Source: Escherichia coli
Lineage (GTDB): Bacteria > Pseudomonadota > Gammaproteobacteria > Enterobacterales > Enterobacteriaceae
Length of the DNA: 64,000 nucleotides
NCBI RefSeq assembly: GCF_003790525.1
Contig: NZ_CP033636.1
Direction: 5' to 3' (one strand)
Shown: in pieces, positions 14,972 through 15,274 of the stretch
Numbering within the stretch: the stretch's first letter is position 1
Layout: each line of letters begins with the position of its first letter
Program-made: the position numbers and the translations under genes
Notes under the pieces: model-generated
Database searches by the model: none
What the model was told of the DNA's origin: nothing
What the model saw: the letters and a program-made list of their open reading frames with translations, nothing else

Positions 14972-15274
14972 ATGGAACGTGTAATATTTTCAGTAATCTT
15001 TTTTATGATGCTGGGCGTACCTTTTTACCTTCTTTATAAAATTGCCCGGGACATTTTTGGGACCGCCGGTGCTGGTGAGCCTGCACAATTGCCTCAGGGC
15101 AAGCAAAGACGCTCAGGAGGCGCTGGTTCGGGTTCGATCTGGCAAGGACACCATCTACAGGGGAGCAGCCATTTGAACCCCCTCGGAGGTGATTGTAATG
15201 GTGAAAATAGCATAGCTGGTGGTTGTGATGGTGGCGGTGGAGGAGGAGGAGGAGGAGGTGGTGGTGGTGACTGA
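14972..15274 (+). CDS. small membrane protein with Gly-rich C-terminal tail ending in a poly-Gly run (100 aa)
   Basis: AGGAG RBS 8 nt upstream of ATG; N-terminal hydrophobic helix; 13 consecutive Gly codons at the C-terminus. Confidence 0.45.
   Translation: MERVIFSVIFFMMLGVPFYLLYKIARDIFGTAGAGEPAQLPQGKQRRSGGAGSGSIWQGHHLQGSSHLNPLGGDCNGENSIAGGCDGGGGGGGGGGGGGD
15231..15272. repeat. (GGN)n simple-sequence tract, about 14 units
   Basis: GGTGGCGGTGGAGGAGGAGGAGGAGGAGGTGGTGGTGGTGAC. Confidence 0.8.

Follow-up and report, generated by a model that had tools for sequence, protein, structure and literature searches.

We analyzed a stretch of 64,000 nucleotides of Escherichia coli DNA (contig NZ_CP033636.1 of NCBI RefSeq assembly GCF_003790525.1), hereafter called the window, which represents the backbone of a plasmid of incompatibility group HI2 (IncHI2) adjoining the Tra1 transfer genes. 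The gene under study occupies positions 14972..15274 of the plus strand. It starts with ATG and codes for a small membrane protein of 100 residues, registered in RefSeq as a "hypothetical protein" (WP_000442694.1), whose C-terminal part is encoded by a microsatellite of glycine codons. Direct reading of the sequence revealed an AGGAG Shine-Dalgarno motif at 14960..14964 on the same strand, 7 nucleotides before the start codon.

The N terminus is predicted by hydropathy and AlphaFold2 to form a transmembrane helix at residues ~4 to 22 (VIFSVIFFMMLGVPFYLLY; 14981..15037, plus strand), beyond which lie K23 and R26, basic residues next to the membrane. A mean Kyte-Doolittle value of 2.24 over residues 4 to 22 marks a strongly hydrophobic peak, and an AlphaFold2 model made from the single sequence has a confident helix at residues 2 to 32, with predicted local distance difference test (pLDDT) scores of 87 to 94. 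From residue 31 to the C terminus the scores are ~45 to 54, which predicts disorder. This part includes a Gly/Ser/Gln-rich linker, predicted from pLDDT to be disordered (residues ~29 to 81; 15056..15214, plus strand), which contains His60, His61, His67, and Cys75 and is the fastest-diverging segment within the protein family described below. Because basic residues (K23, R26, K44, R46, and R47) follow the helix and the N-terminal stub is almost uncharged, the positive-inside rule suggests an N-out/C-in topology, in which the tail and the Cys residues would be cytoplasmic. This signal is clearer in orthologues, whose helix is followed by RNKK or RARNKK. The convincing ribosome binding site and the N-terminal helix proposed in a first-pass annotation of this DNA were thus borne out.

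The linker leads into the element A-G-G-C-D (residues 82 to 86; 15215..15229, plus strand), which directly precedes the glycine run, aligns with DAGGGC of IncHI1-type orthologues, and contains Gly84 and Cys85, both almost invariant in the family alignment. Its codons, GCT GGT GGT TGT GAT, are followed by the microsatellite, which encodes Gly87 to Gly99 (15230..15268, plus strand) and reads GGT GGC GGT, (GGA)6 (15239-15256), and (GGT)4 (15257-15268), and then by the Asp100 codon GAC and the stop codon TGA (15269..15274, plus strand). The protein end is therefore AGGCD-G13-D. The first-pass annotation had counted the 13 glycines correctly but had attributed them to a (GGN)14 tract, which is in fact (GGN)13, and its description of the C terminus as pure poly-Gly does not hold given the Asp codon before the stop. 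A terminal Asp behind the Gly run was found in every intact full-length family sequence that we compared, from IncHI1 and IncHI2 plasmids alike. The tract is the sole run of at least four GGN codons on the plus strand of the window. The longest single-amino-acid run elsewhere, over all frames and excluding the other frames of the tract itself, is 6 residues, and the number of such tracts expected from base composition is ~1e-11.

A second open reading frame (ORF), of 74 amino acids with a run of 13 prolines (Pro13), lies on the minus strand at 15094..15318 and could in principle be the real gene. It is open in the window, and its third codon positions coincide with those of the sense frame; both frames therefore give an equal ratio of nonsynonymous to synonymous substitution rates (dN/dS). 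Within IncHI2, this ratio is 0.2 relative to a Lelliottia plasmid and 0.48 relative to a more divergent contig, values that rest on small counts of 5 to 13 substitutions. The strand was settled as plus by stop codon content and the ribosome binding site, not by dN/dS. No stop interrupts the sense frame in any of the nine diverged family members (9/9), and in front of it lies a conserved AGGA(G), which is retained at equal spacing in the IncHI1-type orthologues L025, L028, L029, and L031. Each of the five other frames has stops, and the antisense frames contain 1 to 5 of them in all nine members. The antisense ORF starts with TTG without a Shine-Dalgarno motif, spans only the 3′ part of the region, runs opposite to the surrounding gene array, and is annotated in no record, so that we give it practically no chance of being the gene. 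These sequence features indicate that the plus-strand gene, annotated in RefSeq and retained with its ribosome binding site in nine diverged relatives, is real and that the antisense poly-Pro ORF is an artefact, as the first-pass annotation had supposed. The outcome that would have spoken against it, conservation of the antisense frame, was looked for, and the sense frame proved to be the conserved one.

A 901-nucleotide region of this locus was found at ≥95% identity in 985 PLSDB plasmids, 954 of which are predicted to be conjugative, from Escherichia, Salmonella, Enterobacter, Klebsiella, and Citrobacter hosts. It is also present in 241 of 5426 complete E. coli genomes, nearly always on plasmids, and all of the plasmids inspected were typed IncHI2A / MOBH / MPF_F. 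The gene itself is carried by ~975 PLSDB plasmids. It belongs to a co-directional array of small genes without assigned function downstream of a ParB-like gene, and the array adjoins the Tra1 block, which comprises genes for NERD, S49 peptidase, DUF4400/DtrJ-like, TraD coupling, MobH relaxase, and MobI proteins. The common gene order is a 145-residue gene, an ~180-residue gene, one variable gene, the gene under study, a gene for a 94- to 109-residue membrane protein, an ~120-residue gene, and then the NERD, S49 peptidase, and DtrJ-like genes. This order is identical in the window and in L009, L025, L026, L028, L029, and L031.

Sequence searches with the window protein recovered only IncHI2 copies. 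When the neighboring 120-residue protein was used as the query, 1241 plasmids were found, 269 of them at 60 to 80% identity, and the matching slot in IncHI1-type plasmids holds a small gene of equal architecture. The orthologue of the IncHI1A plasmid pH226B is WP_000925845.1, a protein of 77 residues: MLLNIALILYVAVCLYLCLRNKKALYRFQGGGRQFTQSSKSGANTGESGFFLISGYSDTGVGGDSGDAGGGCGGGGD. A Citrobacter plasmid of the IncHI1B type carries it as a 91-residue ORF ending in ...GGDGGCGGGGDAGGGCGGGGD, which is unannotated, the depositors having called a wrong frame. A profile search extended the set to more lineages with proteins of 85 to 88 residues, all ending in DAGGG(G)CGGGGD, and the same gene order was confirmed for three of them. 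With the IncHI1 protein as the query, tblastn found 271 plasmids. The sum of 975 and 271 is close to the 1241 plasmids that have the neighboring gene, which therefore makes the gene under study a backbone gene.

The proteins of the WP_000925845.1 family share with the window protein the slot next to NERD, S49 peptidase, and Tra1, the N-terminal helix followed by basic residues, a disordered Gly/Ser-rich middle, and an end composed of A-G-G-(G)-C, a Gly run, and Asp before the stop codon. Identity to the window protein is ~30 to 37% in a low-complexity alignment. They differ in being shorter (77 to 91 residues; IncHI1B-type variants, 84 to 91) and in having a Gly run of 4 residues specified by mixed codons, with no microsatellite and no variation in run length. 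Profile comparison of the IncHI2 and IncHI1 groups with hhalign gave a probability of 84% (E = 7e-6) over 53 columns of a compositionally biased region. We take this result as supportive only, and the proposed orthology rests on synteny and architecture. On these grounds, the IncHI1-type genes appear to be previously unrecognized orthologues, and the accessions WP_000442694, WP_000442693, and WP_000925845 would form a new family that links the IncHI2 "hypothetical protein" to them. As for annotation, about half of the sampled records had none under the match to an IncHI1-type orthologue; in p52323CZ_VIM (CP085739.1; L026, 2478-2753), a 46-residue ORF in the wrong frame (2659-2799) had been called across the G-rich end.

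The C-terminal end is the part of the protein under the clearest constraint. In six aligned IncHI1-type proteins, the last 11 residues, DAGGGCGGGGD, are invariant. When five IncHI1-type genes were compared pairwise over their last 12 aligned codons, every pair showed 0 nonsynonymous and 0 to 2 synonymous differences. Over the whole gene, nonsynonymous difference amounts to 0.12 to 0.20 for the nine pairs that join distinct lineages (L025 and L031 hardly differ), and dN/dS among the five genes is 0.43 to 0.67. The end codons are mixed, i.e., GGT GGC GGA TGT GGG GGC GGT GGT GAT. Because the Gly codons are mixed and the changes are synonymous only, the Gly/Cys/Asp end is kept by selection at the protein level rather than by repeat homogenization, and we conclude from these alignments that the end with its Gly and Cys residues and terminal Asp is constrained and probably ancestral.

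The same observations bear on the proposal that the functional element is a nucleic acid, with G-quadruplexes in the mRNA or in single-stranded plus-strand DNA affecting translation, replication, or transfer. ViennaRNA with G-quadruplex energies places three tandem two-layer quadruplexes on the plus strand and lowers the folding energy from -20.9 to -72.1 kcal/mol for RNA and from -5.1 to -59.1 kcal/mol for DNA; assemblies also often break in the tract. Two-layer energies are model values only, however, the long pure tract is limited to one IncHI2 sublineage, and in the IncHI1-type orthologues it is the amino acids that are conserved, the Gly run being short and its codons mixed. A nucleic acid function is thus very unlikely.

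We also looked for natural disruptions of the gene. The L007 match resumes at window position 15110 beside an IS10-type transposase, and a junction search yielded 25 PLSDB records with a split gene, i.e., R478 (NC_005211.1), the IncHI2 prototype, and 24 other plasmids. The 9 bases CGCTCAGGA (15110..15118, plus strand), intact in the window, probably represent the duplicated target of Tn10. The fusion product of this insertion (P0013), which reads ...QRRSG followed by LMNPLMIF, was found on 460 contigs. R478 is self-transmissible. In pEGY49_MCR-1.1, an internal deletion has removed codons 19 onward into the tract, and a C5-to-C4 frameshift allele (P0029) is present on 81 contigs, some of which may be homopolymer errors. 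The Tn10 insertions in R478 and 24 further plasmids, together with the deletion and frameshift alleles, show that the gene is not needed for the replication, maintenance, or transfer of the plasmid.

Such losses are what one would expect if the ORF were a decaying or functionless remnant of the backbone, with a tract that is simply a neutral DNA microsatellite in an open frame. Besides the Tn10 insertions, the pEGY49 deletion, and the frameshift alleles common in drafts, this explanation draws on the confinement of the gene to IncHI plasmids, on the lack of a family match, on the dN/dS values of 0.43 to 0.67, and on a local divergence hot spot that takes in the 3′ half of the ORF together with the spacer downstream. 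It is less easily reconciled with the retention of the frame and the ribosome binding site across IncHI1 and IncHI2 lineages, whose neighboring proteins are only ~73% identical, with the presence of the gene in essentially every plasmid that has the neighboring gene, or with the invariance of the 11 or 12 C-terminal residues, where change is synonymous only. We therefore consider a remnant unlikely, though still a serious possibility.

The length of the tract varies among relatives. Pure Gly runs of the G13D type are encoded by GGT GGC GGT (GGA)6 (GGT)4 in the window and by GGT GGC GGT (GGA)4 (GGT)6 in L006 and L014. G14D is encoded by GGT GGC GGT (GGA)5 (GGT)6 in L002 and by GGT GGC GGT (GGA)4 (GGT)7 in L013; G11D by GGT GGC GGT (GGA)4 (GGT)4 in the 238- to 252-kb contigs L021 to L023 and by GGT (GGA)5 (GGT)5 in L020; and G9D by GGT GGC GGT (GGA)2 (GGT)4 in L024. 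A frameshifted tract, (GGA)8 followed by GGGG, occurs in L003. Asp-interrupted tails take the forms G6DG5D (L004, L007, and L015), G5DG5D (L012), and G6DG6D (L009), and four further alleles are known at the protein level only (G6DG4D, G6DG4AD, G10D, and G8AG3D). The two sub-tracts vary independently between identical flanks, with 2, 4, 5, 6, or 8 copies of GGA and 4, 5, 6, or 7 copies of GGT, and at least 10 in-frame tail alleles exist on near-identical backgrounds. Slippage in steps of 3 nucleotides that alters the tail and keeps the frame, as put forward in the first-pass annotation, is supported by these whole-unit changes, and the comparison of sequenced copies that it recommended revealed lengths from G9 to G14 in addition to the Asp-interrupted series.

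To describe the alleles of finished plasmids, we used an even-step sample of 60 of the 975 PLSDB records. Twenty-eight were identical to the window and 25 had the interrupted allele, which is 3 nucleotides shorter, so that two alleles make up ~88% of the sample and length is mostly stable within lineages. The other records comprised two that are 3 nucleotides longer and one each that is 6 nucleotides shorter, has a 1-nucleotide deletion, is of equal length with two substitutions, has a large deletion, or belongs to the interrupted lineage with a tract matching G6DG5D. Among 60 sampled copies from complete E. coli genomes, 44 were identical to the window, 3 were longer by 3 nucleotides, 1 was shorter by 3 nucleotides with a pure tract, and 1 was shorter by 6 nucleotides. 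Finished plasmids therefore carry two dominant, lineage-linked alleles plus rare unit-step variants. In the PLSDB sample, variants were commoner in the pure tract (4/32) than in the interrupted one (1/27), on small numbers.

Contigs of draft assemblies contained G11D (210 contigs), G8AG3D (54), G9D (30), and G10D (16), counts that are unusable for ranking common alleles because the look-up missed the window allele and other RefSeq alleles. About 650 NCBI/Logan short-read contigs stop within the (GGA)n part of the tract, which is thus a recurrent assembly breakpoint in IncHI2-bearing isolates, and four of them (L016 to L019) were confirmed to end after GGT GGC GGT (GGA)3. These ends are compatible either with length heterogeneity within cultures or with a systematic difficulty in sequencing a G-rich repeat.

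Variation of this kind might be adaptive: akin to a contingency locus, the repeat would tune in frame how far the terminal Cys/Asp motif reaches or how it binds, and particular lengths would be favored by host or condition. The many length alleles on near-identical backgrounds, the conservation of the end motif, from which the spacing to it could matter, and the hundreds of draft contigs that end within the tract are compatible with it. Against this stand the two dominant alleles of finished plasmids, which track lineage and not host, the observation that the whole gene can be lost, the absence of ON/OFF switching with a 3-nucleotide unit, and the fact that the contig breaks may equally be sequencing errors at G-rich motifs. 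Adaptive tuning has, in our view, a small chance of being correct, and the length variation is probably tolerated rather than adaptive.

Classical contingency loci switch genes on and off through repeat units of 1, 2, 4, 5, or 7 nucleotides or through promoter spacing. They change expression, whereas the tract described here keeps the frame. It resembles in-frame coding trinucleotide repeats that evolve by slipped-strand mispairing, in that the tandem triplets (GGA)6 and (GGT)4 are perfect, alleles differ by whole units (+3, -3, and -6 nucleotides in finished plasmids), and the interrupted form is less variable. The common alleles are all in frame, and the rare frameshifts have other origins than the gain or loss of units. 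With a unit of 3 nucleotides, the tract is an ordinary in-frame coding microsatellite and not a phase variation switch.

No curated family, defense system model, phage family, solved structure, or paper matched the window protein in Pfam, NCBIfam, PADLOC, PHROGs, the PDB, or the literature. The sole line returned by the four family collections was TMEM208 (E = 0.15, meaningless), and for ten neighboring proteins they gave only ParB-like, IS1, and NERD matches. Apart from long Gly-rich proteins that match by composition, phmmer recovered nothing but IncHI2 variants from 1.84 billion representatives, and the sole match of a PDB profile search was the Gly-Ala repeat of EBNA1 (E = 0.47).

Resemblances to known proteins were followed up individually. 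McbA, the precursor of microcin B17, is an enterobacterial peptide that is encoded on a plasmid and contains ten consecutive glycines (Gly10) as well as Gly-Cys/Ser sites. The window protein is likewise small and plasmid-borne, with many consecutive glycines and with Cys residues flanked by Gly, and its family has conserved GGGCGGGG elements, so that it might be the precursor of a thiazole/oxazole-modified peptide in which Gly-Cys sites become heterocycles. This likeness is the sole support for the idea. No genes for cyclodehydratase, dehydrogenase, export, or immunity functions of the McbBCD type are annotated within 20 kb on either side, the immediate neighbors have no such matches in PHROGs, NCBIfam, or PADLOC, the protein itself matches nothing in NCBIfam or Pfam, and in place of a cleavable leader peptide it has an N-terminal hydrophobic membrane anchor of 19 residues. 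A microcin-type precursor is extremely improbable. The Gly/Cys/His/Asp-rich metal-binding tail of SlyD (NCBIfam PRK10737) is similar in composition, and one IncHI1B-type member weakly matches it; the match is not significant (E = 0.8; 9.6 bits versus a cutoff of 174), and the family lacks the peptidyl-prolyl isomerase domain.

Three further candidates were rejected. The RTX repeat (GGxGxDxUx) requires a hydrophobic position that is missing from tails of the form G5-6-D-G4-6-D or G13-D, and Pfam has no match. The plant family GRP of Pfam (PF07172) does not match the window protein, and its match to one of six IncHI1-type members (E = 1.9e-4) is probably compositional. The pilin TrhA of R27 is cyclized between Gly1 and Asp69, is processed in the periplasm, and loses five C-terminal residues (PMC12667790). 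The coincidence of Gly and Asp does not relate it to the window protein, which is a different protein that ends at Asp with a probably cytoplasmic tail.

Taken together, the data favor, with a probability of about 0.6, a genuine but non-essential gene of the IncHI backbone that codes for a single-pass inner-membrane protein, whose Gly tail is a slippage-prone expansion of an ancestral Gly/Cys/Asp end. The protein would consist of an N-terminal anchor, ~70 residues of disordered Gly/Ser-rich chain, probably cytoplasmic, and the AGG(G)C element with its Gly run and terminal Asp, the end motif being ancestral and selected at the protein level. In the IncHI2 lineage, the Gly run would already have been longer and interrupted by Asp (G6-D-G5-D). 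The sublineage of the window would then have lost the interrupting GAC codon, leaving the two perfect triplet repeats (GGA)6(GGT)4 and the tail G13-D, after which replication slippage, by adding or removing whole codons, would let the tail drift between G9 and G14 with the frame intact. All of the more divergent IncHI2 relatives (L004, L009, L012, and L008) have GAC-interrupted tails, the most divergent, L008, reading GGDGGGDGGGD if a 1-nucleotide deletion is ignored; by parsimony, the pure G13 run is therefore derived within one IncHI2 sublineage. The run may serve as a flexible spacer, with lengths from 4 (IncHI1) to 14 (IncHI2) consequently tolerated. The first-pass annotation had described poly-Gly tails as rare in enterobacterial plasmid proteins. 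The tail of the window protein is no isolated oddity but the expanded form of a motif conserved across IncHI1 and IncHI2 plasmids.

Several points weigh against this interpretation. Frequent natural disruption is equally expected of a gene without function. The dN/dS values are just moderately below 1 and, given the third codon positions shared with the poly-Pro frame, would by themselves leave the strand undecided. The likeness between IncHI1 and IncHI2 proteins is partly compositional, and phmmer with a single sequence found nothing remote outside IncHI2. Some rare alleles, such as the frameshifts and the 1-nucleotide deletion of L008, may be sequencing or assembly errors, and the neutrality of the length variation is an assumption. 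Finally, literature searches with the protein accession and for IncHI2 RNA sequencing, IncHI glycine-rich proteins, and the R27 transcriptome returned nothing on the gene and no expression or proteomic data.

More speculatively, the invariant C-terminal module, which reads Ala-Gly-Gly-Gly-Cys-Gly4-Asp-COOH in IncHI1 and AGGCD-Gly(n)-Asp in IncHI2, could be a functional thiol/carboxylate site for docking, modification, or metal binding, held on a long flexible tether at the inner membrane face, in a new IncHI family that modulates transfer or establishment. We regard this as doubtful. Were the module functional, the triplet repeat of IncHI2 would let the tether length evolve fast.

IncHI2 plasmids are major vehicles of mcr-1 and of multidrug resistance, and for most genes of their backbone no function is known. 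The gene of the window is a coding microsatellite within a small membrane protein gene, and what is new is the recognized family and its invariant C-terminal motif, which, as the part of the protein under clear constraint, offers a concrete target for mutagenesis. The tract provides a fast-changing, lineage-informative marker for IncHI2 typing and is also a trouble spot at which short-read assemblies break or are mis-sized. Given that plasmids can do without the gene and that there is no sign of a new mechanism, the biological return is likely to be small.

Several observations concern the surroundings of the gene. The 432-nucleotide upstream spacer (14540-14971) is unusually conserved, with 2 differences relative to L009, versus 11 in the 356-nucleotide downstream spacer. 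Rfam gave a single match, to Mu-gpT-DE, which was sub-threshold (14932-14974, over the ribosome binding site and start codon; 24 bits versus a gathering score of 49; E = 0.039), which we judged to be due to chance. Predicted promoter and terminator sites were no more numerous than after shuffling of the sequence, and none lay immediately before the gene. Relative to the Lelliottia IncHI2 plasmid, the divergence hot spot named above (15081-15580) accumulates 19 differences per 500 nucleotides, compared with 0 to 4 per 250 nucleotides elsewhere in 14081-20276.

The variable upstream slot is occupied in IncHI2 by a 122-residue gene (14171-14539 in the window) and in some IncHI1-type plasmids by an unrelated DUF905 gene (L025, 1895-2146; L026, 1885-2121; L031, 390-626), which makes the array a mosaic around a conserved core. 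The next gene downstream (15631-15915) codes for a 94-residue protein with an N-terminal membrane helix, a charged tail, and no family matches, and is kept at the same position in IncHI1-type plasmids as a protein of 104 to 109 residues. The NERD-domain protein encoded beside the S49 peptidase (16621-17352, minus strand) weakly matches N-terminal parts of the defense kinases MAD6 (E = 8e-11) and PglW (E = 1e-4), far below the curated cutoffs. Compared with pSA186_MCR1, which has ISApl1 within the NERD gene instead, the window contains a 768-bp IS1 at 12031-12798, with 9 bp duplicated at the junction, which splits its copy of the 98-residue backbone gene WP_000744346.1.

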